This document shows, one piece after another, positions 3,560-35,477 of a stretch of 35,477 nucleotides of DNA. The notes under the pieces were generated by a model. That model did no database searches and was not told where the DNA came from. It saw only the letters and a list, made by a program, of their open reading frames with translations. Both the position numbers and the translations under genes were made by a program. The DNA is taken from the IMG/VR virus record IMGVR_UViG_3300031867_000276, positions 1-35,477 of that record; one strand, written 5' to 3'. Numbering within the stretch: position 1 is the stretch's first letter; the number at the start of each line of letters is the position of its first letter. Origin of the DNA: a virus.

Positions 3560-4815
3560 GACGACAGCGGACTATAACTGTAAACCTGTATAAACCCAAA
3601 GACTATCAGTTGGCGGTGCATCGTGGACTGTCCGAACACTGGGCGGATTCATTCCACTTTGTAAAGGCTGTGCGCCAGTGCGGAAAGTCGATGATGGCTG
3701 AAAACATCCTGATTAAAGCGTCACTGACACACCCGAACCAAACATCCGTACTGATTGCACCGACATTCAAACAGGCACGCAAGATTCTCAAATCTATTGT
3801 CCGCAAGTTCAGACGTACACCCCTGTATGCGGGAAGTAACAGCAGCGACCTCGAATTTACATTCTCCAATGGCAGTATCATTGTGTTTCTGTCTGCCGAA
3901 CAGGGCGACAATATACGTGGTCAGACGGTGTCGCAATATGGTGTGTTGGTAATTGATGAAGCAGCGTATATCAGCGATGAAGTCTTTTACACCGCAACAC
4001 CTTTCGTCAATGCAAACCACGCACCCATTGTCGCAGTCAGTACACCGAGATTCAAACAGGGTTTCTTCTATGATTTCTACGCTGATGGGTTGCAGGGCAA
4101 AGCAAACATCTACGCATACGATTTCACGGACTACGACAATCCATTTCTGACACCTGAAAAGTTGGAAATGTACCGCAACAAAATGCCGTTGAATCTATTC
4201 CGAGCAGACTACCTCGGACAATGGATGGAAACAACGTCTGATGTGTTCGGAGATTTCAAAAAGGTACTGTCAAACACTGTGTCAATGACCGGGCAATATA
4301 CAGCCGGTATCGACTGGGGTGTTGGTAAGAACGCAAAGAGTAACGACAGCGACAGCACCTCTTTGTCGATATTCAACAATCTACATCAACAGGTCGGTAT
4401 ATTCCATTGGAACGATCTCGATGAAACAACGACCATTGCACGAATAGTTGAGACGCTGAAACAGTTTAATGTCCGCAAGGTTGTAGTGGAAACAAACAGC
4501 ATCGGCAGTGTGTATCTGGGATTGTTGCGAAGGGCAATCCAACAGGCAGGGTTGCTTTGTCAGGTTGTTGAATTTGCGACCACCAACGACAGCAAACGTG
4601 AAGCAATAGAATACTTTATCGTACAGGTGCAAAACCGCACAATTCAACTGCTTGACGACAACGAGCAGTCAATACAGATGTCCGCTTTCAGGATGGAGAA
4701 AACACCTACAGGCAAAGTAACCTACAACGGCACACCCGGCTATCACGACGACTGTATAATGGCAACCGCTATGGCACTACACGGATTGAAAATTGGAACG
4801 TATAACATACTTTAA
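3556..4815 (+). CDS. terL: Terminase large subunit
   Basis: Walker A-like VRQCGKS, Walker B VLVIDEAAY, and a C-terminal nuclease-type HDDCIMA. Confidence 0.9.
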   Translation: MRRQRTITVNLYKPKDYQLAVHRGLSEHWADSFHFVKAVRQCGKSMMAENILIKASLTHPNQTSVLIAPTFKQARKILKSIVRKFRRTPLYAGSNSSDLEFTFSNGSIIVFLSAEQGDNIRGQTVSQYGVLVIDEAAYISDEVFYTATPFVNANHAPIVAVSTPRFKQGFFYDFYADGLQGKANIYAYDFTDYDNPFLTPEKLEMYRNKMPLNLFRADYLGQWMETTSDVFGDFKKVLSNTVSMTGQYTAGIDWGVGKNAKSNDSDSTSLSIFNNLHQQVGIFHWNDLDETTTIARIVETLKQFNVRKVVVETNSIGSVYLGLLRRAIQQAGLLCQVVEFATTNDSKREAIEYFIVQVQNRTIQLLDDNEQSIQMSAFRMEKTPTGKVTYNGTPGYHDDCIMATAMALHGLKIGTYNIL

Positions 4816-9590: not shown

Positions 9591-10412
9591 ATGCCGAATT
9601 ACTACCATATAAAGGTTCGCAGAGATACCGCAGCAAATTGGGCGGCTAACAATCCGACCCCTGCTTATGGCGAAATCTGTCAGGAAACAGACACCAAACG
9701 TAAAAAGATTGGCGATGGTGCTACTGCGTACAACTCATTACCATACGACCAACCGGGCAACGCTACCACATCCTCGGCAGGTCTTATGTCTGCAGCGGAC
9801 AAACAAAAGTTGGACGGTATTGATATGTCGCAATATGCGAAACTCAACTCTCCGCTTTTCACAGGCACACCAACAGCACCGACCAAAAGCGGTTACGATG
9901 TCAGTAAACAACTTGCGACAGATGCCTACGTGCTGCATCAAATAGCAGCGGCATCGGCATCGGTAATGGTGCGTTGCATCTTTTCATTGTCTGCGAATAC
10001 TGTTCAGAATATCATTAACAACATTTCCGAATGTGTCTTTATGGCTGTCAATGGGAAAGCGGTTGCAATAGAGAAGTCACAAAAACTCGTTGCAGGAATC
10101 AACTATGTTGATTTTGTTTTCAATACTGGTTCGCAGATTGCCTGTAGCAAGATTCCCGACGATGCCTTTGGCGGCATTTCCAATCTGACCGCTGCGGTAT
10201 TGCCTGAAAGAATAATCGAGGTTGGCATTAAAGCCTTTAGTGGCTGTCCGGAAATGAATATGGTGTATTCGCTGTCGCCATTCGCAAAGATAGATGGCAC
10301 AACGTTTCAGGGGACAAACTTACTAAAAGCATACGTACACAAAGCATTTGCCACGTACTATCAGGCGGATGCGGAATGGACTGCTTTAAATTGTCAATTT
10401 ATAACATTCTAA
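9591..10412 (+). CDS. Tail fibre protein with C-terminal leucine-rich-repeat-like domain
   Basis: The N-terminal VRRDTAANWAANNPTPAYGEICQETDTKRKKIGDGATAYNSLPY resembles the Mtd/HylP-type N-terminal fibre domain. GLMSAADKQKLDGI and SPLFTGTPTAPT are fibre motifs. The C-terminus shows a BspA-like LRR pattern. Confidence 0.7.
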   Translation: MPNYYHIKVRRDTAANWAANNPTPAYGEICQETDTKRKKIGDGATAYNSLPYDQPGNATTSSAGLMSAADKQKLDGIDMSQYAKLNSPLFTGTPTAPTKSGYDVSKQLATDAYVLHQIAAASASVMVRCIFSLSANTVQNIINNISECVFMAVNGKAVAIEKSQKLVAGINYVDFVFNTGSQIACSKIPDDAFGGISNLTAAVLPERIIEVGIKAFSGCPEMNMVYSLSPFAKIDGTTFQGTNLLKAYVHKAFATYYQADAEWTALNCQFITF

Positions 10413-10956: not shown

Positions 10957-12550
10957 AAAGAAAATTTCCGAACTCCCTGTGTTTAATGGCAATGCAGCGG
11001 AGTATGTCATTGTCGGTTACGATACTACCGATATGACAACAAAGAAATGTAATTTTGCCACGCTGATTGCCAACAGTGGCGACCCACGTATCAAACCATT
11101 GACAGCCGAGAATCTTGAAGTTGGCGATATGCTGTTCTTTGACCGTGCCGAAGAAAAATACTGCATTGTTAAGAAAGCAGCCATCGCAGCAGTTTTGGCA
11201 GACTACAACCAAACTCGCTACGAAACCAACTACGACACCTACATTGGCACATTCAATGGTGTTGCACACTTTGTCGCTTTGGACGATGCAGTTGCAAGCA
11301 ACGCACTCTACAGCGATGATGTTGCTGCGACATCCTGTTTCTATCGTATCGAGATAGACAACACGCAGGCTGGCAGTATTACCCTGTCGGCAACAAGTGG
11401 CAATGCCAGTGTCGCAGAAACGACCATCACTTGGGGTGCAGGCGACACGATGTCAAGCATTGTCGCACAGTTCACGGCACTCAATACCACGTACATAACC
11501 TTTGCTGCACTTGACGACCAAAGCGGTGTAGGACTGGAGATTGGCGGTTATGGCAATAACACCCTCACGACATCGGGATTGTCAAACTGCACCGTCATTG
11601 ACTGTTCAGGACTGGCAATGCTGTCGAGCCATAACAGTACCGCTGTTGTGGGCGGCACTTATGTACCCGGCAACGCCTATACCTTTATCGGTCAAGGTGT
11701 ACACCATAATTTCAGAGGTGCTTCCGCAAACTCCATCCTCGGTGCAACCGTCAAGGCTCCGAATACAGTCTGTATTGCCAATGATGGTTTCAACTACAGT
11801 TACCGAGTCGGAATCAACTTTGCCAAATTCAAATCGTGGGCATCCGTCAGTGGCGATGATACATACTATGATGATGGCGAGGGCGGTCAGGATGATTCTG
11901 TAGGTCACGTGATGCGTGAATCGAGATTTAACACCGAGGTACGTGACTACACAGGCAGCGATGCACACCACCTCGGAATGAAAGACTACTATACACACCT
12001 GTTGAATGACCAGTCGGGCGAATATGCCGAACTGCGTGAAGAGTTTATTTCTCGCTATGGCAATATGACCTCGATGTATGACGGTTATTTGATGGCACAC
12101 TGTATGGATGTGGCTGCCGCCAGTGGCACAACCAATGACCTGCGCAATTATGGTATGACGCAGACAGCAGCGAAAGCAGACTGCCTGAACGTCAATTACA
12201 ATTACAAGTTCATTCCTGCATATCCGCCTGAATACAACGCACAGCATTATGGCGTGACTTCCGAGGGATTTGTGCCGGGTAAATACTACCATCCCGAACC
12301 GGGTGACATTGGTTTGATGTTCCGTGACGACATTATGCCTGTCATTAATGACAATATAACAGAAGTCAGAGCGGCATTGCTACAGAACGTTGGCACACCT
12401 CTTACAAACTCACTGTACAGAGGTTCGTGCGCTGACTGCGGCGGCGGCAGCTCGTGGTTCTTCGACGGCAGCGGCGGCTGTTTCAGCAGCGACGGCCGCT
12501 ACGGCGGTTACTTCCGCTGTCGTCCTGTCCTCGCTTTAAGCCTTTCATAA
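10949..12550 (+). CDS. DGR target protein 1: tail-fibre / receptor-binding-like protein with C-terminal variable (C-type-lectin/DUF1566-like) region
   Basis: The last ~40 aa (CADCGGGSSWFFDGSGGCFSSDGRYGGYFRCRPVL) are encoded by VR1. Lies in the tail-fibre neighbourhood, directly upstream of avd-TR-RT. Confidence 0.85.
   Translation: MSKKKISELPVFNGNAAEYVIVGYDTTDMTTKKCNFATLIANSGDPRIKPLTAENLEVGDMLFFDRAEEKYCIVKKAAIAAVLADYNQTRYETNYDTYIGTFNGVAHFVALDDAVASNALYSDDVAATSCFYRIEIDNTQAGSITLSATSGNASVAETTITWGAGDTMSSIVAQFTALNTTYITFAALDDQSGVGLEIGGYGNNTLTTSGLSNCTVIDCSGLAMLSSHNSTAVVGGTYVPGNAYTFIGQGVHHNFRGASANSILGATVKAPNTVCIANDGFNYSYRVGINFAKFKSWASVSGDDTYYDDGEGGQDDSVGHVMRESRFNTEVRDYTGSDAHHLGMKDYYTHLLNDQSGEYAELREEFISRYGNMTSMYDGYLMAHCMDVAAASGTTNDLRNYGMTQTAAKADCLNVNYNYKFIPAYPPEYNAQHYGVTSEGFVPGKYYHPEPGDIGLMFRDDIMPVINDNITEVRAALLQNVGTPLTNSLYRGSCADCGGGSSWFFDGSGGCFSSDGRYGGYFRCRPVLALSLS
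12417..12534 (+). repeat. DGR variable repeat VR1
   Basis: Gap-free 118-nt alignment to TR. There are 19 internal mismatches (17 A>G, 2 A>T), all at TR adenines. The terminal 23 nt are identical. Confidence 0.9.
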
Positions 12551-12569
12551 GTTTGAATGTTTAATCTTT

Positions 12570-12597
12570 GCCGCTCCATCCCGTAGGGTGGGGCGGC
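12570..12597 (+). other. GC-rich hairpin downstream of VR1 (candidate DGR target-recognition structure or terminator)
   Basis: gccgctccatccc / gggtggggcggc forms a 12-bp stem with one bulge and one G-U pair and a 3-nt loop. It lies about 35 nt after the VR1 end. Confidence 0.55.
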
Positions 12598-12620
12598 ATT
12601 GAAACAAACAATGAATCATT

Positions 12621-13064
12621 ATGCCGAGAAAACGTCCGAAATCACTCGATGCACCTGTGGTTATGATTGCCCGAAGACTTGAAGCGTGGGCGTATCTGCG
12701 TTGCGACCAGTGGAAAAAGCAATACAGATATACCCTCGTGAATGATTTTCGCAGTCATATCACAGCGGCAAAGAATGAAATCATACGTGGTTTTGAATTG
12801 CACAACAGATTCAAAGACGAAAAACTATACCATTACAACCTCGCACAAACCGAATTGGCATTGACCGAGAGTTGTATGGATATAATGATAATGGACGAAT
12901 TCTGCATAATGAGTGAAAAGGAATGGGCGCAGGCTGCAATGCAGATTGATGAAATAAGAATGGGATTGTCGAGGCTCGCTAACTCGCTAACTAAAGGCGT
13001 TGGTGGGTCGGAATCTTCGAACTGCGGAACGGAGAGCGTGTCTGCCAATTATAAGGATGTCTAA
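12621..13064 (+). CDS. avd: DGR accessory variability determinant (Avd-like)
   Basis: 147-aa basic, predicted helical protein in the canonical position between the target gene and TR. The pattern resembles four-helix-bundle Avd proteins. Confidence 0.7.
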   Translation: MPRKRPKSLDAPVVMIARRLEAWAYLRCDQWKKQYRYTLVNDFRSHITAAKNEIIRGFELHNRFKDEKLYHYNLAQTELALTESCMDIMIMDEFCIMSEKEWAQAAMQIDEIRMGLSRLANSLTKGVGGSESSNCGTESVSANYKDV

Positions 13065-13078
13065 CTATTCAGGTAAAT

Positions 13079-14485
13079 ATGGATAGTCAAATCAACATAG
13101 ACAAGCAAAGAGGTTCGTGCGCTGACTACAACGGCAACAACTCGTGGTACTTCAACGGCAACAACGGCTGTTTCAACAACAACAACCGCTACAACGGTAA
13201 CTTCCGCTGTCGTCCTGTCCTCGACTATGGCTGGTATGACAATGCGAAACTCGACACATATCCCATCACACTTGCAGACTGGTACATTATCAGTCGTGAA
13301 ACTGCAAAGGGCAAAGCGAACAAACCCTGCTACGTGTTCTTTATCCTGAATCGGATAAACGAGTTGGTACAACTTGCACACGAGGTTGGAAATTTTGAGG
13401 TTATGCCGACCGAAAGCACTGCACATATTATCTTTGAACCGAGAGTGCGAGAGATTGTATGTGCTGTTGCATCGAAACGAGTGTTGCAAACTTACTACAT
13501 CCGCAGTCTGCAACCATACCTCGAAAGCGTTCTGTACCATCCTGACAGTTACAGTTGCAGACGTGGCAAAGGCGGTCTGCGTGCCGTGATGCAGTTGCAG
13601 GATTATATCTTTGAGCAGTCAAACGGCTATACTTCCGATTTGTGGCTTGCGAAAGTGGATATACAGGCGTTCTTTATGTCGCTCAACTGCTTTCAGGTGT
13701 GCGAGGTCGTAACAAACTTCATCAACCGCAGAATGTCAGACCATCCACAGCGAGAGTTGCTTGTCTATCTGACACGCATAATCTATCTTGCAGCAACAAA
13801 AGACCATTTGAGGGATATGGCGCACCCTGCGGAACGAGTGTTGCTCGACCCTACCAAATCGCTTTACAACCGTCCGCACTATACAGGTGTACCCATTGGC
13901 GATTGGACGAGCCAAACGGCAGGATTAATCATTACTACGTTTCCGCTGCGGTATCTTGAATCTTTGGGATATAAGTTTATCCATTACACGGACGATACTG
14001 TTGTACTGGTCAGGGATAAGCGGCAATGGCTCGAAGATGTTGAACGACTTGCGAGATACTACAAAGAAAATTTTGGTTTGACACTGCACCCGAAGAAACG
14101 CTATCTGCAACACTACAGCAAGGGCGTTGAATGTTTGGGGTACAAAGTCAGATTTAACCGCATACTTCCGAGCAACAGAATCTATCATAATTTGACGTGG
14201 TATTTGGAGCGTACTATCCGCAAGGCTGAATCCCAACCGAGTTTTGCCATCAGTCACGCCGAGCAGATACAATCAACATTGAACAGTTACCTCGGTTTCC
14301 TGCGTTGGTGCAACGGTTACAGGCTCCGTGAAAAGGTCTGTAAAATGGTTTCTGATTCAGTACTCGGAACGGTGTTGAAACCATCCGAGGACTGTAAGAA
14401 AATAACCATCCGCAGGGAATACACAAAGAAAACATACTATCGAAACGAATATAAAACACTGAAACAACAATTAAAAGCAGCATAA
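13079..14485 (+). CDS. DGR reverse transcriptase (annotated ORF includes TR at its 5' end)
   Basis: PIGDWTSQ (the I/LGxxxSQ DGR-RT signature), YTDD catalytic motif and VDIQAFFMSL. The true start is uncertain because no in-frame ATG lies between TR and the conserved N-terminal RT region. Confidence 0.9.
   Translation: MDSQINIDKQRGSCADYNGNNSWYFNGNNGCFNNNNRYNGNFRCRPVLDYGWYDNAKLDTYPITLADWYIISRETAKGKANKPCYVFFILNRINELVQLAHEVGNFEVMPTESTAHIIFEPRVREIVCAVASKRVLQTYYIRSLQPYLESVLYHPDSYSCRRGKGGLRAVMQLQDYIFEQSNGYTSDLWLAKVDIQAFFMSLNCFQVCEVVTNFINRRMSDHPQRELLVYLTRIIYLAATKDHLRDMAHPAERVLLDPTKSLYNRPHYTGVPIGDWTSQTAGLIITTFPLRYLESLGYKFIHYTDDTVVLVRDKRQWLEDVERLARYYKENFGLTLHPKKRYLQHYSKGVECLGYKVRFNRILPSNRIYHNLTWYLERTIRKAESQPSFAISHAEQIQSTLNSYLGFLRWCNGYRLREKVCKMVSDSVLGTVLKPSEDCKKITIRREYTKKTYYRNEYKTLKQQLKAA
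13107..13224 (+). repeat. DGR template repeat (TR)
   Basis: Adenine-rich master copy with 12 AAC and 3 TAC codons and 28 adenines between 13121 and 13200. It matches VR1, VR2 and VR3 at all non-adenine positions. Confidence 0.9.
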
Positions 14486-24990: not shown

Positions 24991-25199
24991 GCGGTTTCGG
25001 TCACAAATCGGTCACATATTTCGCAATCGTCTGAATTACAATTCTAATTGTACCCCCTGGGGGAGTGTTTCGATTGTCACTTTTTGAGTACTTTTCGGCA
25101 CAAAACAAATCATTTCAGAGTGTTGTGCGCTGATGAACGGCTTATGGTTAGTTGTAGGCGATGCAAATTCTGTCATATTGATACAAATATTCGGTCACA
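24991..25199. other. Candidate attP region
   Basis: Only sizeable non-coding gap next to int. It has three TCGGTCACA direct repeats (24997, 25008, 25191), the inverted repeat tacaatt-ct-aattgta (25037-25052) and ccccc-t-ggggg (25053-25063). Confidence 0.4.
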
Positions 25200-26439
25200 T
25201 TTCGGACACACTGTCTGCAAAGGTGTCGAACATTGACATTTTCTTTTTCTTTACATCGTCAGCAATGGCGATGTATGGTTTTAGTGTCTTATGGTCTTTG
25301 TGACCAGTCCAACGCATAACGACCTCTGACGCTATATCCAGTGAAAGAGCCGTCACAACGAATGTCTTGCGTCCGCAATGGGATGTAAAAACCTGCCATT
25401 TCGGTACTGATTCCTCGTGGCGTTCAGAACGCACCCACCAAACACGGCGTACAGGCTCGTCAATCTTTGCCATCCTGCCGAGTTCTTTCAGATAGATGTT
25501 TGTTTTCTGATTGCTGACAACAGGCAATGCCGGGCAATCTGCATCATTGCCGCAGTTGTACTTTTCAAGTATGGCTGCGGTTACTTTGTTTAATTCAATG
25601 TTGATGGCGGCAGATGTCTTTTTCGTAACCACACGAAAATGTTCTTTGTGGATGTCCGACCGCCGCAGTTTGGCAACGTCAGAATACCGCAGACCGCTAA
25701 AGCAGCAAAACAGGAATATGTCACGCACCCTGTCAAGGTGTGGCAATGCCGACAAATCCAGTTCCATAATGCGATGCAGTTCGTCACGGGTAAGATAGAC
25801 AACCTCGTTTTCTGATTCAGACCGATAGCGAGTATAGAATCCTGTTGCGTCAGTCTGCTCGCACAACCCTCGTTCAATGGCTGTCCGCAAAGTCCATCGC
25901 AGTTGTTTCAGAAACTTTTGTACTGTGGCGTTGATAAGTCCACGTTCAAAGCAGAAATCCATAAATGCCTGTATATCGGCTTTCGTAAAGTCTGCGAGTG
26001 TCTGATATGGTCGCCAGTCTGATATGCGGTTACGCAGTGTAATATAATTGCGACGTGTGTTGTAACTCCAACCATCCCCGAGGGTGCTATCTTTCAAAAA
26101 CAAGTCCATTACGCCCACGAGCAGCAAAGATTCTTTTGCCTGTTCTTTGGTGTGGATGTCTCCGAGTGCAGATTTGACCTCGGCAGGGGTAACGATGCGA
26201 TGTTCAAGATGTGCAGCATCAAAGAGCCTGTCGATTGCTGCGGTCTTTTCCTGTATTTCTTTCATCGCCCTGCGATGGGTGCGGAGTGGCAACCCAGTAC
26301 GAGAATCCCACTCGCTATCTTTTGCCGAGGTGTCGAGATAGTGAGTGACACATTGACCGTTCCACGATACACGCATCCTGATTGCCTTTGTACCGTCCGT
26401 GTGTGGTCTGTTGAGGGTGTAACGGACGCTGTATTTCAT
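25195..26439 (-). CDS. int: Tyrosine recombinase / phage integrase
   Basis: 414 aa with LRYSDVAKLR, HCGRKTF and WTGHKDHKTLKPY (R..H.R..H..Y catalytic pattern) and an N-terminal SAM-like domain. Confidence 0.9.
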   Translation of the reverse strand: MKYSVRYTLNRPHTDGTKAIRMRVSWNGQCVTHYLDTSAKDSEWDSRTGLPLRTHRRAMKEIQEKTAAIDRLFDAAHLEHRIVTPAEVKSALGDIHTKEQAKESLLLVGVMDLFLKDSTLGDGWSYNTRRNYITLRNRISDWRPYQTLADFTKADIQAFMDFCFERGLINATVQKFLKQLRWTLRTAIERGLCEQTDATGFYTRYRSESENEVVYLTRDELHRIMELDLSALPHLDRVRDIFLFCCFSGLRYSDVAKLRRSDIHKEHFRVVTKKTSAAINIELNKVTAAILEKYNCGNDADCPALPVVSNQKTNIYLKELGRMAKIDEPVRRVWWVRSERHEESVPKWQVFTSHCGRKTFVVTALSLDIASEVVMRWTGHKDHKTLKPYIAIADDVKKKKMSMFDTFADSVSEM

Positions 26440-27991: not shown

Positions 27992-28435
27992 ATGAACGAA
28001 AATCAAATCAACAACGAGCCTGTAAGCGTCCACAGAGACGAGAACGGCAACCCTGATGGGGTATTGGTGCAGACACTTGACGAACGCTTTGTAATCGAGT
28101 TGCACGACATTGACGATGGTAAAGACGATTTCAGTTTTGACACCGCACAAGAGCGACTGAAAGAACTCGGTAAAACCACATTCAACAAAAAGCAGGGTTT
28201 GATACTGGCTGCATACATCGAGGAAATCAACACAGCGCTTGTCGAAGCAGGTGGCGAACCCTTTGCCAAAGACTTGTACACATCCGGGGAACTGTACAAA
28301 CCTGTTGGGTGCGCTGACTACTACGGCAACGCCTCGTGGTGCTTCCACGGCGCCGGCGGCTGTTTCGACTACGACGACCGCTACGACGGTGACTTCCGCT
28401 GTCGTCCTGTCCTCGCTTTGCCTTTACAAAGTTAA
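27992..28435 (+). CDS. DGR target protein 2: small (147 aa) variable protein, paralog of 31726..32166
   Basis: The C-terminal CADYYGNASWCFHGAGGCFDYDDRYDGDFRCRPVL is encoded by VR2. No signal peptide or TM segment is visible. Confidence 0.85.
   Translation: MNENQINNEPVSVHRDENGNPDGVLVQTLDERFVIELHDIDDGKDDFSFDTAQERLKELGKTTFNKKQGLILAAYIEEINTALVEAGGEPFAKDLYTSGELYKPVGCADYYGNASWCFHGAGGCFDYDDRYDGDFRCRPVLALPLQS
28309..28416 (+). repeat. DGR variable repeat VR2
   Basis: Gap-free 108-nt alignment to TR 13117-13224. There are 15 mismatches (10 A>G, 3 A>C, 2 A>T), all at TR adenines. Confidence 0.9.
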
Positions 28436-28448
28436 ATAGTTAAACGTT

Positions 28449-28472
28449 GCAGCCTGCTTTCGGGCAGGCTGC
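28449..28472 (+). other. GC-rich hairpin downstream of VR2
   Basis: gcagcctgc / gcaggctgc forms a perfect 9-bp stem with a 6-nt loop, about 32 nt after the VR2 end. Confidence 0.6.
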
Positions 28473-28489
28473 ATTAAAACAAATCAGCA

Positions 28490-29865: not shown

Positions 29866-30741
29866 ATGAGTAATCAAACAAGTAACCTGCCAGCGTTGCA
29901 GGAAAGTAAGAACGAGTTCGCAATGGCTCTTACCGATGCCATCCAACTCGACATCGTAAACAATGTGGCAGGGGCGTTCGATGCCGCTATCATAGTGGCA
30001 CGGCTCGAAGCAGTACTGACCGATGAAGTTATGGAAGCGGTATTTATGCCGTTGATGAACAAAAAAATCGGTTTCCTGACTGACCACGACCCGAACCGCC
30101 CTCGCAATGGTGTAACCCCGAAACCGTACCCAGTCAGTGTTGTACGTACCTGTATCATTGACGCAGCGAGTATGGGTTTGCGTCCAACAGGCAACCAGTT
30201 CAACATCATTGCCGAAAGAATGTACCCAACGAAAGAGGGTTTTTCGGCACTGTTGAAAAACTACAGTGTGCAGCACGATTTGAAGTACATCTTTCAATTC
30301 GACAGTGGCGCACAACCTCAATCAACGCCCGAATGGGAATATATACCCTGCGTCATTAACTACCAGTTGAACGGAGAGACGCAGAAACCGTTCAAGTATG
30401 TTGCATCGGTCAATAAGAAAAACGGTGCCAATGTCGACCAAATGAGGGGCAAAGCAGAAAGAAAATGCAAAAGGGCGTTTTATGAGTATCTGACCGGGAA
30501 CGATCTCGGCGATGCAGATGCCGACACGGTGGATGTGACCTATGCCGAAGTGAAACCCACAGCGACCGCCAAGAGCGCAGCACAGAGGGCAAAGGAAGCA
30601 ATGGAAAAGGCGAGAGCCAAACGTGAAGCAGCCGAGGAAAAAACGACCGCAGCGGCAGGAATCCAACCCAACATCAACTTTGATGAAATGACGGACGAGG
30701 AAATTGAACGTCTGACCAACGGAGAGGGGGTTGAGCAATGA
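29866..30741 (+). CDS. recT: RecT-like single-strand annealing protein
   Basis: IIDAASMGLRPTGNQFNIIAERMYPTKEGF pattern. Paired with the downstream exonuclease. Confidence 0.6.
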   Translation: MSNQTSNLPALQESKNEFAMALTDAIQLDIVNNVAGAFDAAIIVARLEAVLTDEVMEAVFMPLMNKKIGFLTDHDPNRPRNGVTPKPYPVSVVRTCIIDAASMGLRPTGNQFNIIAERMYPTKEGFSALLKNYSVQHDLKYIFQFDSGAQPQSTPEWEYIPCVINYQLNGETQKPFKYVASVNKKNGANVDQMRGKAERKCKRAFYEYLTGNDLGDADADTVDVTYAEVKPTATAKSAAQRAKEAMEKARAKREAAEEKTTAAAGIQPNINFDEMTDEEIERLTNGEGVEQ

Positions 30742-31715
30742 AAGTCATACGGTACGATTGCAAGACCAATCAGGAGTGGCGAGCAGAACGCTCGCACTCC
30801 ATTGGTGCAAGTTCAATTGGAATCCTGATTGGTGCAAACCAGTACACAACCCCGATGGAACTGGCTGTAAAGATGCGTAAAGAACTGGAAGGCGATTTCG
30901 ACTACACGCAGACACTGGCAATGATGAGAGGACACGCCTACGAGCAGGGAGTTGCAGACCTGTTCAGTTGGAAAACAGGCAAAGAGGTAATCAAATCGAG
31001 CAGTCGTGAGTTTCTTTTGAGACGTGACGACATACCATTTATGCACGCCAGTCCGGACAGAACGTATTGGATTGATGCAGATGGCACAAAGCACGGAAAA
31101 AACGCTGCAGCGAACAAAGGTGTATTGGAGTGCAAAACCACTCGCAGACTTATCGACCCTGACGATTTGCCGCTATCGTGGCAGTTTCAGTTACAGGTGC
31201 AGATGGGTATTGGCGGATTCAGTGAGGGTTTTATTGCGTGGGATGTACTGACCTCGACAGATGGTTTCGGTTACAAGTATTTCCAGTTTGACGAGGACTT
31301 GTTTAATACCGCTGTGGAGTTGTGCAGGGATTTTTGGGAAAACACCATTGTTGGCGGCAACGACCCCGAACCTGTCAATGCTGCCGACCTGCTACGAAAA
31401 TACCCTAATAGCATTGAGGGTAAGACCATCACGGCAGACGGGGAAACGAAACAACTTGTTTCCGAGATTAAAGAAATGCAATCCACAGCCAAAGAACTTG
31501 ACAACGAGATTGACGAGTTGAAAAAGAAACTCGTTATGAAGTTTACGGATGAGGAAGCGATAATCGATGATGAGACGGGCAAACCCATTGTGACCTACAA
31601 AACAAAGTCAGGTGCAATGCGTGTGGATTCCAAGAAACTCAAAGCAGACTATCCCGATGTATATGCTGCGGTCGCCAAGCAGGGAGAAAGCACACGGACA
31701 TTATTAATCAAATAA
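30738..31715 (+). CDS. YqaJ/lambda-exonuclease-like PD-(D/E)xK recombination exonuclease
   Basis: EWRAERSHSIGASSIG ... GHAYE ... ASPDR ... LECKT motifs. Confidence 0.8.
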   Translation: MKVIRYDCKTNQEWRAERSHSIGASSIGILIGANQYTTPMELAVKMRKELEGDFDYTQTLAMMRGHAYEQGVADLFSWKTGKEVIKSSSREFLLRRDDIPFMHASPDRTYWIDADGTKHGKNAAANKGVLECKTTRRLIDPDDLPLSWQFQLQVQMGIGGFSEGFIAWDVLTSTDGFGYKYFQFDEDLFNTAVELCRDFWENTIVGGNDPEPVNAADLLRKYPNSIEGKTITADGETKQLVSEIKEMQSTAKELDNEIDELKKKLVMKFTDEEAIIDDETGKPIVTYKTKSGAMRVDSKKLKADYPDVYAAVAKQGESTRTLLIK

Positions 31716-31725
31716 ATCAGGAATT

Positions 31726-32166
31726 ATGAACAACAATAATCAGGATGCAGTAATCAGCATCATAACAGATAACAACAACCATAAATGGGTTAGGGTTGAA
31801 GCATTGGGCGAAGACTTCTGCATTGCCACAGAGGACTTGAATAGCCGAGACGATATGACCTATGATGAAGCGATGAAAGAGTTGAAAGAAGTTGGATTGG
31901 ACACTTTCAACCGCAAGCAAGGATTCATCATTGCCATCTACATTGAGACAATCAATGCCAAATTAAAAGAAGCAGGCGGAAAGGAATTTGAGCGTGACTG
32001 GTATACAAGTAATGAATTGTGGAAGCCTGTCGGGTGCGCTGACTACAGCGACGGCTACTACTCGTGGTTCTTCTACGGCGGCAGCGGCTGTTTCAACTAC
32101 GACGCCCGCTGCGGCGGTTACTTCCGCTGTCGTCCTGTCCTCGCTTACGCCTCCTTAAAGTTTTAA
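31726..32166 (+). CDS. DGR target protein 3: small (146 aa) variable protein, paralog of 27992..28435
   Basis: Shares TFN(K/R)KQG.I.A.YIE.IN..L.EAGG..F....YTS.EL.KPVGCADY with target 2. The C-terminus is encoded by VR3. Confidence 0.85.
   Translation: MNNNNQDAVISIITDNNNHKWVRVEALGEDFCIATEDLNSRDDMTYDEAMKELKEVGLDTFNRKQGFIIAIYIETINAKLKEAGGKEFERDWYTSNELWKPVGCADYSDGYYSWFFYGGSGCFNYDARCGGYFRCRPVLAYASLKF
32034..32144 (+). repeat. DGR variable repeat VR3 (one codon longer than TR)
   Basis: 111 nt versus 108 nt of TR 13117-13224. There are 16 substitutions, all at TR adenines, plus a 3-nt in-frame insertion in the tac-aac-ggc-aac-aac segment. Confidence 0.85.
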
Positions 32167-32183
32167 TCTTTTTACCTTTTAAA

Positions 32184-32402
32184 ATGGCAACAGGTCAAAT
32201 CAGCAACAAACAAAAGGTGGTCCGGGTGTATTGCTCGGACTGCCGCTGGTTTGTCCGTGACACCGAGGGAAACAGTTTTAAGTCAGGCACAAATCCGAGA
32301 TACTATTTTATGGGCGAATGTTCAAAGGGGTTGCACCCTGATACTATCATAAAGCAGTTCGCCGACAAACCAAGAATCTGTCAAACCTATAGTGAGAAAT
32401 GA
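32184..32402 (+). CDS. Small Cys-containing protein
   Basis: ORF 32064..32402 trimmed to ATG 32184 (MATGQISNKQK...), because the upstream part overlaps VR3 out of frame. Confidence 0.5.
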   Translation: MATGQISNKQKVVRVYCSDCRWFVRDTEGNSFKSGTNPRYYFMGECSKGLHPDTIIKQFADKPRICQTYSEK

Positions 32403-33277
32403 GATTTTTCTTCGATACAAACGAGAGTGACCGACTGGGTTTGTCAGGGGTTGATGAAAAGATATACTTTTTCATCAAATCCTACGGCAACGAAGGTGTA
32501 AATATGGGTATAAAGAAAATGTCGGAAAAGTTTATTAAAGAGAGTATATCGACAGTCCAAAGAGGCTTAAACAGACTGATTAATCGTGGTTTGGTTATAT
32601 GCTCAAAATCCGACTACATAATCAATGGTGGAATGGTAAATCATTACTGCGTACCGCAGGTCAAAATGAACGAGGGGGATAGTTCAAAACGAACAAAGGG
32701 TACTATCAAAATGAACGAGGGGGATAGTTCAAAACGAACAAAGGGTACTATCAAAATGAACGAGGGGGATAGTTCAAAACGAACAAAGGGTACTATCAAA
32801 ATGAACGAGGGTACACCTTATAATAATACAAACAATATACAAACAAACTCTACAAACAATATACAAAGGGGTAACGCCACCGCAGAAATTATTTCGATTT
32901 CAGAATTGGTTTTGATTAAGTGGAACGAGCATTACACACAGCATTTCAATACTGGATATGTACCCGACTACCGCAGTCTGACCAACGACAAAGATTTGAT
33001 TTCCGATGCGGTCAAAAATAAGATGCAGGATTTCAAAAAAAATCCGGACAACGTAGATGAAGCAGCCGAATTCATTCAGGCAATGTTTGAAGCAATGTTT
33101 TCCGCTGCCGACAAATGGCAAAAGGAACACTGGACGCTGCACACTGTAGCAACACAATTCAATCAATTATACAACGCAATAATCAACAGAAAGAATGGAA
33201 ACAACAACAGCAATAACAACGGTGGAATCACGGACGATTACATTGCAAGAAAGATGCGAGAGGCTGGATTGCTATAA
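32399..33277 (+). CDS. Replication initiator-like protein (winged-helix N-terminus, internal iterons)
   Basis: ISTVQRGLNRLINRGLVI is an HTH-like segment. Three perfect 45-bp repeats encode (KMNEGDSSKRTKGTI)x3. Lies in the replication module. Confidence 0.55.
   Translation: MRFFFDTNESDRLGLSGVDEKIYFFIKSYGNEGVNMGIKKMSEKFIKESISTVQRGLNRLINRGLVICSKSDYIINGGMVNHYCVPQVKMNEGDSSKRTKGTIKMNEGDSSKRTKGTIKMNEGDSSKRTKGTIKMNEGTPYNNTNNIQTNSTNNIQRGNATAEIISISELVLIKWNEHYTQHFNTGYVPDYRSLTNDKDLISDAVKNKMQDFKKNPDNVDEAAEFIQAMFEAMFSAADKWQKEHWTLHTVATQFNQLYNAIINRKNGNNNSNNNGGITDDYIARKMREAGLL
32661..32811 (+). repeat. Tandem 45-bp direct repeats (3 perfect copies plus a 16-nt partial): candidate origin iterons
   Basis: The unit tcaaaatgaacgagggggatagttcaaaacgaacaaagggtacta occurs at 32661, 32706 and 32751, with a partial copy at 32796. 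Confidence 0.9.
32827..32867 (+). repeat. Two 17-bp direct repeats (tacaaacaatatacaaa) in an AT-rich stretch next to the iterons
   Basis: Copies at 32827-32843 and 32851-32867. Confidence 0.8.
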
Positions 33278-35346: not shown

Positions 35347-35477
35347 AAACAATAAAGTATTTATTGGTTACTGCCGACCACAGGGAACTATATTTCGACC
35401 ATTGGTTGGATATGATTTCGGCAATGGCAACAATGATTGATAAAGGCGAGACGGTCTGTGTCAAAAAACTGGATGAA
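35343..35477 (+). CDS. Hypothetical small protein spanning the circular junction (3' end continues at 128..157; total about 53 aa, MKTIKYLLVTADHRELYF...)
   Basis: The ATG at 35343 overlaps the TGA of the preceding gene (ATGA). The frame stays open through the repeat and stops at TGA 155-157 of the duplicated start. It is absent from the ORF track because it is split by the window edge. Confidence 0.5.
   Translation, partial: MKTIKYLLVTADHRELYFDHWLDMISAMATMIDKGETVCVKKLDE
35351..35477. repeat. Terminal direct repeat, copy 2 (identical to 1..127)
   Basis: Read directly. Either an assembly overlap of a circular molecule or a short terminal redundancy. Confidence 0.95.

Follow-up and report, generated by a model that had tools for sequence, protein, structure and literature searches.

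We consider it very probable that VR3, the variable repeat (VR) at the 3' end of target gene 3, is a working target of the phage's single DGR, that the one codon by which it exceeds the template repeat (TR) was inherited from one slip, and that the events which later rewrote the repeat either replaced only the part 3' of this codon or were recombination. The window, as the term is used here, is the whole stretch of 35,477 nt that was analysed, and the coordinates of its relevant features are collected in Table 1.

Table 1. Positions of the DGR components, the VR3 features and the neighbouring genes in the window, with the basis of each assignment.
Feature	Positions	Strand	Basis
Target gene 1, 533 aa	10949..12550	+	VR1 at 12427-12534, hairpin 12569-12598
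Avd-like accessory gene	12621..13064	+	Weak matches and position between target 1 and TR
Reverse transcriptase (RT) gene	13079..14485	+	RVT_1, E = 5.7e-14; called ORF spans TR
TR, template repeat	13117..13224	+	Repeat scan and alignment
Target gene 2, 147 aa, paralogue of target 3	27992..28435	+	VR2 at 28309-28416, hairpin 28448-28473
YqaJ/RecE-like exonuclease gene, directly upstream of target 3	30738..31715	+	PF09588, E = 2e-16; phrog_434, E = 2.6e-64
Target gene 3, 146 aa, single-domain	31726..32166	+	ORF list; predicted C-type-lectin-like fold, VR3 at 3' end
VR3, variable repeat, 111 nt (TR 108 nt)	32034..32144	+	Every substitution at a TR adenine
AGC GAC, two codons opposite a single TR AAC	32047..32052	+	Same six bases in L002, L003, L004 and L005
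GC-rich 3' end, TTCCGCTGTCGTCCTGTCCTCG, common to TR and all VRs	32122..32143	+	IMH-like 3' boundary of information transfer
VR-specific 3' flank, CTTACGCCTCCTTAAAGTTTTAATC...	32144..32183	+	Last codons and stop of target 3, then 17-nt spacer
Next gene, 72-aa protein with four conserved cysteines	32184..32402	+	ORF list
Hairpin, 12-13 bp, 72 nt past VR3 end, inside the next ORF	32216..32244	+	Wider fold; overlooked in the initial annotation

The phage contig is complete and circularly permuted, with a genome of approximately 35,350 bp (bases 1-127 recur exactly at 35351-35477), and since it contains an integrase gene (25195-26439), the phage is temperate. A scan that tolerated any change at TR adenines found exactly four repeat copies, all on the + strand, namely VR1, TR, VR2 and VR3. 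The RT gene adjoins the TR, as is characteristic of DGRs, and the RTs closest to it in the phage collection are those of the B. uniformis phages F1, F2 and F4, which are distant matches sharing about 28-30% of residues across about 77% of the RT. Both profile matches of the Avd-like gene are sub-threshold (NF033474 DivGenRetAVD, E = 0.001, 19.3 bits with a cut-off of 80; PF05635, E = 0.007, 17 bits with a cut-off of 33.8), while its size and its place between target 1 and the TR fit Avd. Some homologues of target 3 come from Bacteroidales metagenome-assembled genomes, and the host group is therefore likely Bacteroidales. The Bacteroides phage DGRs (B. uniformis F1, F2 and F4; Hankyphage), which hold the nearest RT relatives and likely share this host group, nevertheless differ from the present element, as neither the DGR cassette (megablast) nor target 3 (tblastn) had a match in 50,697 deposited phage records; by these searches the phage appears to be an uncultivated lineage that is new to deposited collections. 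Exact-pattern scans of viral contigs for the common VR 3' end and of JGI metagenome contigs for the VR3 flank each returned a single locus, and single-protein locus searches of viral contigs returned no relatives.

Alignment of VR3 with the TR bears out the initial annotation in its count of 16 substitutions, all at TR adenines; the sixteenth, after 15 others, is the common boundary base 13224 (A to C). The TR has 29 adenines in its 108 nt, no difference was found at the 79 non-adenine positions, and we estimate the chance of such an adenine-only pattern to be <1e-8. Counted in the same way, with the boundary base included, VR1 differs from the TR at 20 positions and VR2 at 16, again all at TR adenines. 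The alignment of VR3 requires one 3-nt gap in the TR and the reading frame is kept: opposite tac aac ggc aac aac tcg in the TR, VR3 has tac agc gac ggc tac tac tcg, precisely the in-frame insertion that had been read before. Non-adenine mismatches stay at zero wherever it is placed from 32045 to 32051 (a span of 32045-32053 in all), the best placement being GCG at 32048-32050. Downstream of TTCCGCTGTCGTCCTGTCCTCG, all three VRs continue with CTT... and the TR with ACTATGG, a difference of the IMH/IMH* kind. A C-to-T change in the TR, at the position equivalent to 13219, is present in L017/L019 and absent from their VRs. The VR-specific 3' flank is conserved in all relatives and resembles the flanks of VR1 and VR2 up to the start of their hairpins. 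The annotated consensus (CTCG|CTT...) is indeed kept at VR3.

Target 3 shares 53% sequence identity with target 2, in agreement with the paralogy proposed for them, and a protein search found 110 homologues of it. None of targets 1-3 belongs to a family in Pfam, PHROGs or NCBIfam, and a profile of the target-3 alignment had no match among PDB sequences. The AlphaFold model of target 3, built on 51 homologues (pLDDT 86.8, pTM 0.83), had as its best Foldseek PDB matches only C-type-lectin-like structures, with weak E-values of 0.05-0.2: the top one was the C-terminal domain of Legionella Lcl (probability 1.00, TM 0.53/0.59), and the others included the C-terminal domain of Bdellovibrio Bd2740, EgtB, the mannose-receptor CRD and snake-venom lectins. 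The protein is thus predicted to have a C-type-lectin-like fold, the scaffold that DGR variable proteins usually have, with VR3 covering residues ~104-139 of 146 and the extra codon (residues 108-109) lying in the loop that was modelled with the least confidence (mean pLDDT 64 for residues 101-110). Targets 2 and 3, both of about 146 aa, have no recognisable signal peptide or virion domain and are encoded amid early genes, in which they are unlike the additional targets of known multi-target DGRs. As for the RecT/exonuclease pair that had been named upstream of target 3, the exonuclease is supported by its family matches (Table 1), but the RecT label is not, since the supposed RecT (29866-30741) had no match in Pfam, PHROGs, NCBIfam or PDB sequences.

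As close orthologues of VR3 we took 34 alleles with the same C-terminal tail, gathered by the protein search and from the cluster members, of which 29 are of equal length. Among these 29, between 7 and 11 residues occur at every one of the 13 AAC codons, variation at the TAC and GAC codons is limited to what adenine changes permit (except for two single odd residues), and the adenine-free codons are invariant or differ only in a lineage-specific way, in lineages that have a different constant VR sequence there. Tyr codons are strongly over-represented in VR3 alleles. At the DNA level, eight alleles from genomes with the window's TR showed 124 substitutions at adenine sites versus two distinct non-adenine events. 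The comparison of adenine-site variation across related genomes, which had been suggested as a check on ordinary divergence, therefore places the variability at TR-adenine codons. Contig L006 has 0 differences from L007-L009 in 3680 flanking nt and a very different VR3 allele, so the rewriting of VR3 must be recent. The adenine-only divergence together with the hypervariability in the population supports the view that target 3, annotated as a remote DGR target, is a genuine, active and non-adjacent one, as far as can be judged from sequences.

The more divergent lineages L011-L015 and L036-L039 have a VR3 whose constant positions are not those of the window, and in L012 and L015, whose loci also include VR2, the changes at these positions are mostly common to VR3 and VR2, a pattern that fits what would be expected of template-driven concerted evolution. 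In L007-L010 VR3 is constant and VR2 changed once, in L006 VR3 is freshly rewritten, and related contigs break at VR1 and VR2 and never at VR3, the numbers being small for a comparison of VR2 and VR3 activity.

The extra codon is not peculiar to the window. The identical tac agc gac ggc is present in L002/L003 (P0001), L004 (P0113) and L005 (P0114), so the length polymorphism for which a search among related genomes had been proposed does exist, with the insertion in four other contigs. These carriers were drawn from JGI, ENA and Logan sources, and some of the assemblies may stem from one project or from one data set assembled more than once. By flanking DNA the carriers, the window included, group as a single clade, with 0.1-1.6% divergence within it and 3.5-6% from non-carriers. 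It could be argued that the three bases are an artefact of mis-assembly or sequencing in a hypervariable repeat, as some related contigs (L005, L006, L020-L022) do break at VR1/VR2 and P0168 looks like a chimera of VR2 and VR3. However, the same insertion occurs in four contigs with different downstream VR content, the carriers group together by their flanking DNA, and the reading frame is kept. An assembly error is effectively refuted by this occurrence in contigs from several sources that form a single clade, and we give an artefact of any kind next to no chance.

In alleles without the insertion, nine residues are found at the first AAC codon, and the TAC before it varies too, whereas in all carriers TAC AGC GAC is frozen and the adenine codons downstream differ. 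The best explanation appears to be that the extra codon arose once, in the ancestor of the sub-lineage, and was then inherited. The TR is of constant length (108 nt) and adenine content in nine related contigs (L016-L024); one of these, L017, whose TR is without the extra codon, is the same contig (k141_3199144) as L002 with its inserted VR3, and L019/L001, also with a 108-nt TR, come from the JGI sample of L003. A past TR variant with one more AAC was among the explanations offered initially: an older TR would have read TAC AAC AAC GGC, been copied to VR3 and later lost the codon. The inserted codon has the NNC form that a templated AAC would give, and the TRs of distant lineages do differ (the L011-L014 lineage reads gcg ggt here), but this history is very improbable in view of the nine TRs of 108 nt, those of the carrier genomes included, of VR1 and VR2 of the same genomes, which are without the codon, of about 29 other VR3 alleles without it, some on the same protein scaffold haplotype, and of the shallowness of the carrier clade.

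The initial annotation had assumed that a VR and its TR should be equal in length. This premise is too strict, as TR/VR length differences are found in 25/372 DGRs (~7%), of which 14 are in-frame and 74% adjoin AAC, and RT slippage has been proposed as the cause of such indels (Wu et al. 2018, Nucleic Acids Res 46:11, PMC5758913). A 2026 reconstitution study also invokes slippage (PMC12875486).

Length variants are recurrent in this phage group. In VR3, one-codon indels make 5/34 alleles differ in length. In the window, the +3 nt stand at TAC|AAC|GGC, with an inserted codon of NNC form that adjoins the TR AAC. In L006, VR3 has a one-codon deletion at the second CTACAACGG, which accompanied a full rewrite of VR3 in an otherwise identical genome. 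L002/L005 have a second VR3 insertion (cgc CGT tac) with a neighbouring G-to-T change, and this one is not of NNC form. VR1 has one additional codon in 3/14 full-length cluster members (P0156, P0159 and P0160): in P0159 and P0160 the (AAC)4 run corresponds to five codons, and P0156/L040 has tgg tgc ATC ttc versus tgg tac ttc in its own TR. No VR indel was found in VR2 among 12 orthologues. The sites of the sister indels are the second CTACAACGG, the (AAC)4 run and TAC TTC AAC. We also considered whether indels are special to VR3, which has no hairpin, and rejected this, since VR1 with its strong hairpin has also gained a codon in 3/14 members.

These indels bear on whether the insertion in the window could be an ordinary DNA-level indel (replication slippage or a repair error) without any part of the retroelement, kept as neutral or useful in a surface loop. 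The low confidence of the loop in the model would suit such an origin, and the second insertion of L002/L005 (CGC CGT) and the nearby G-to-T do look like ordinary mutations. For the codon in the window we nevertheless regard this origin as improbable. Read from 32042-32058, the triplet is no tandem copy of its neighbours in any register, so simple replication slippage within VR3 is not parsimonious; VR3 and VR1 have both repeatedly acquired one-codon indels of xAC/NNC form; the 104-residue scaffold upstream of the variable part shows no length change in the 21 closest VR3 proteins, and only two further cluster members are short of one Asn in the N-terminal poly-Asn run; and the L006 deletion came with a complete rewrite while the flanks remained identical. 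The later DGR-independent indel that the initial annotation listed as its third explanation is unlikely for the same reasons, namely the lack of a tandem duplication and the same form of the sister indels.

Of the explanations offered, we favour slippage, which may have occurred during TR-templated cDNA synthesis or during integration, because the TR is constant and the triplet has no tandem copy. The suggestion that the extra codon looks like a diversified AAC agrees with its NNC form and with the same NNC/xAC form of the sister indels. The site itself is only a weak slip site (tAC aAC) and not the (AAC)4 run.

In a mechanism proposed by analogy with BPP-1, the TR RNA would be reverse-transcribed with random misincorporation opposite adenines, and the cDNA would replace VR3 from the GC-rich 3' boundary (...CCTGTCCTCG|CTT) 5'-wards to a variable, homology-dependent junction. 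A register slip of 3 nt on the xAC-periodic TAC AAC, either in cDNA synthesis or in the formation of the 5' junction, would give TAC-AAC-AAC-GGC, and adenine mutation of both AAC copies, with one A-to-G change in each, would then yield AGC and GAC, which would account for the sequence exactly. The insertion would afterwards be inherited next to a TR without the codon, and later events would swap only the portion 3' of it, through internal 5' cDNA junctions, patchy heteroduplex repair or recombination between alleles. The slippage and partial-conversion steps are both ones that we infer from assembled consensus sequences, and metagenome assemblers can yield a chimeric consensus in hypervariable regions.

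Full-length conversion from a 108-nt TR would delete the insertion. As it has been kept despite the rewriting downstream, later events must have replaced only the part 3' of it, or else recombination did so. L002 and L004 have ggc gcc tac tcg tgg in common and then differ at nearly every adenine codon, and the window departs from both already at the codon just 3' of GGC. In some allele pairs (the window and L002; L006 and L007), shared and different positions are interleaved, for which one simple 5' crossover is insufficient; the interleaving needs patchy heteroduplex repair, recombination between alleles, or convergent selection.

The persistence and mosaicism, as distinct from the origin of the codon, could thus be due to homologous recombination between co-circulating phages and not to partial retrohoming. 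Besides allele pairs that agree and differ at interleaved positions, this has on its side the RecE/YqaJ-like exonuclease gene that adjoins target 3, the structure of P0168 (a target-2 scaffold joined to a target-3 tail), and the two downstream-gene haplotypes, which are distributed independently of the VR3 scaffold lineage, e.g., in L037. On the other hand, the exchanged blocks would measure only tens of nucleotides, the downstream parts of the carriers match no other allele in this sample, and BPP-1 experiments already show variable internal 5' junctions: in that phage, integration at the 3' end is confined to the GC-rich IMH, whereas at the 5' end it is homology-dependent and cryptic internal sites are possible (Guo et al. 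2011, PMC3240598). For this step alone, recombination is a rather unlikely account, with perhaps a chance in four of being correct. Returning to partial retrohoming, we would only tentatively, and with well under even confidence, take the insertion as a natural marker which would indicate that retrohoming in the wild into a target without a proximal hairpin is often partial or patchy, with cDNA used only 3' of the heterology and mosaic alleles sometimes left behind. If true, this would fit integration by annealing and subsequent heteroduplex repair better than a clean end-to-end replacement.

The hairpins downstream of VR1 (13 bp, -12.8 kcal/mol as DNA) and VR2 (10-11 bp, -13.3 kcal/mol as DNA) are two of only three loci in the whole window that reach -12 kcal/mol. 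Folding found no comparable hairpin, and no GC inverted repeat, within 60 nt downstream of VR3, where the initial annotation had also seen none: the 86 nt after VR3 (32145-32230) fold no better than shuffles (z = +1.2 as DNA), and the first 66 nt gave z = +0.3 as RNA. With only 17 nt between the stop of target 3 (32166) and the next start (32184), there is no room between the genes for a hairpin at the usual place. The lack of a hairpin is not unusual, as GC inverted repeats occur in only 34% of DGRs (PMC5758913), and hairpin-independent homing exists, with lower efficiency (Guo et al. 2011, PMC3240598). Relatives are nearly uniform over the 40 nt that follow VR3, and since VR3 is active, the absence of the hairpin is a stable feature and not decay; VR3 is rewritten although no GC hairpin stands at +32 to +35 nt, the usual position. 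The distant small-target homologues L027-L029, L033 and L034 have GC hairpins 25-45 nt downstream, and the VR3 lineage has probably lost its own. In the VR2 hairpin of the window, the loop is inverted (TTTCGG versus CCGAAA in relatives); we dropped the idea that this marks a defective target, as the distant relative L029 has a TTTCG loop naturally.

A wider fold detected a further hairpin 72 nt past VR3 (Table 1), which occurs as two haplotypes, GGTGGTCCGGGT-GTATT-GCTCGGACTGCC in the window and GACACTCCGAGT-AAAAT-GCTCGGAGTGTC. From one haplotype to the other, both bases were exchanged in two pairs and one base in five, and every pair is kept, so that the structure seems to be under selection, to judge by this pattern of changes. 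The second haplotype (-13.5 kcal/mol) equals the VR1 and VR2 hairpins in stability, which, like the compensatory changes, would speak for a DGR cruciform; the window's version contains four G·T pairs and 25 window loci fold at least as well. We consider it unlikely that this hairpin is a displaced DGR cruciform, because of the G·T pairs, because its distance is twice that at VR1 and VR2, and because the hairpin is also present in L041, within a homologue of the 72-aa gene that no VR gene precedes. The hairpin seems to belong to the 72-aa gene, and VR3 is without a canonical DGR hairpin; that the +72 hairpin might substitute for the missing proximal cruciform is a weaker addition to the tentative reading of the insertion as a marker of partial retrohoming.

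Compared with known systems, the element is most readily set beside that of Bordetella phage BPP-1 (mtd, avd, brt), with which it has in common the adenine-specific transfer from TR to VR, a VR at the end of a gene for a C-type-lectin fold (a predicted one here), a GC-rich TR/VR segment followed by VR-specific sequence, GC hairpins (after VR1 and VR2), and seemingly a variable, homology-dependent 5' extent of conversion. Unlike BPP-1, it has three targets, two of which are small lectin-like proteins that stand alone and are encoded in the early/recombination region at 15-19 kb from the TR; moreover, VR3 is 3 nt longer than the TR and has no hairpin at the canonical position. The hairpins that are present lie 32-35 nt past the TR/VR homology, while that of BPP-1 lies 4 nt past a VR that includes a 21-bp imperfect IMH. 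One TR serving several paralogous VRs is also the arrangement of the Treponema denticola TvpA family and of multi-target phage DGRs. Non-adjacent targets were described in 45/372 DGRs and, for phage-borne elements, lie within the prophage at <50 kb from the RT (PMC5758913); the present targets likewise lie in the same phage genome within that distance.

Each element of the finding has a precedent in Wu et al. 2018 (PMC5758913), where in-frame 3-nt indels at or near AAC were found in one of several targets, as here. Those in-frame indels were mostly in the non-phage Lineage 4 (PMC5758913), whereas this element is phage-borne. Beyond those cases, the indel appears to have been inherited through later rewriting, the TR is constant, and further indels occur in VR1 and VR3. 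What is new is therefore the population evidence, i.e., a heritable indel that survives rewriting, indels at two targets, and an active target without a hairpin.

Current DGR models are not overturned by these results. For the search for DGRs, they mean that tools which demand an ungapped TR/VR alignment or a downstream hairpin would miss or truncate target 3. For the biology of these elements, one uncultivated temperate phage of Bacteroidales type combines three DGR behaviours that are known and rarely documented, namely one template with three targets, indels at xAC-periodic sequence, and diversification without a proximal GC hairpin. The survival of the extra codon points to partial conversion of the VR, and thereby bears on the joining of the cDNA 5' end, a step of retrohoming that is poorly understood.

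In two related metagenome loci, L017 and L019, the template repeat (TR) carries a C-to-T change (within 3582–3603 and 2032–2053, respectively) at the base equivalent to position 13219 of the window, within the GC-rich 3' segment that TR and the VRs have in common (CCTGTTCTCG). Despite this change, the C is retained in their VR1, and also in VR3 (L002) on the contig that holds L017; therefore, the 3' limit of information transfer from TR lies upstream of the base equivalent to 13219.

Alleles of VR1 that are one codon longer than usual (534 aa) were found in three related proteins, P0156, P0159 and P0160. In the locus of P0156 (L040, 3990–4030 compared with 4670–4720), VR1 has an additional ATC after tgc and before ttc, and the TR of that locus is without this ATC; in P0159 and P0160, the (AAC)4 run of VR1 has five codons.

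The conserved 3' end of VR1 or of VR2 is the exact starting point of five related metagenome loci (L005, L006, L020, L021 and L022), and therefore their assembly broke in the variable part of these repeats. These contigs pass uninterrupted through VR3, so that, judging from contig breaks in small numbers, the within-sample diversity of VR3 may be lower than that of VR1 and VR2. P0168, encoded on a 1291-nt ENA contig, has the scaffold of target 2 and, at its C-terminus, the target-3 tail (LAYASLKF); it is either a recombinant that has lost the 3.7 kb separating VR2 from VR3, or a chimera that arose when the assembly crossed the VR that both targets share.

The VR2 hairpin has a perfect stem that is identical in the window and in its equivalents in the close relatives L006–L010, while the loop sequence is TTTCGG in the window versus the reverse complement, CCGAAA, in these relatives; the centre of the palindrome is thus flipped between them. 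A TTTCG loop is also present in a distant relative, L029. A second hairpin, which is conserved and has 12–13 bp, lies within the coding ORF of a 72-aa four-cysteine protein. Between two haplotypes of it, both bases differ in two of the pairs, and only one of the two bases differs in five others. Since L041, a related locus, keeps this hairpin without any VR upstream, the structure is probably an element of the mRNA for the 72-aa protein.

The 45-nt unit of a 3.5-copy array is made of 22/23-nt half-repeats in alternation, and the array codes for repeated KMNEGDSSKRTKGTI. As the product of the ORF in which it lies weakly matches replication initiator O, these repeats are probably iterons or an origin. 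The ends of many related contigs lie approx. 500 nt past the VR3 gene, near the array. The direct terminal repeat of the window is exact (127 bp), and its contig is circularly closed, with a phage genome of approx. 35,350 bp.

Coordinates of features in the window
Feature	Position
273-aa protein gene	9591–10412
RT ORF as called, start and passage through TR	13079–13232
Integrase gene	25195–26439
VR2 hairpin	28448–28473
291-aa protein gene	29866–30741
72-aa protein ORF	32184–32402
Hairpin in 72-aa protein ORF	32216–32244
ORF containing 45-nt array	32399–33277
45-nt array	32661–32811
Direct terminal repeat	1–127 and 35351–35477

The 291-aa protein, which the initial annotation named RecT, had no match in Pfam, PHROGs, NCBIfam or PDB sequences; its place before the YqaJ/RecE-like exonuclease gene fits a putative annealing protein. 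The RT ORF as called has its start 5' of TR and continues through TR in the frame common to the VRs (…GSCADYNGNNSWYF…), and because its product resembles other DGR RTs only from approx. residue 94 onwards, the true RT start may be downstream of TR. Two genes upstream of target 1, the 273-aa protein matches tail-fibre PHROGs and, as listed in the L016 and L017 gene tables, contains an Mtd_N domain (PF18454); one protein appears to carry the Mtd-like N-terminal module and another the variable lectin domain.
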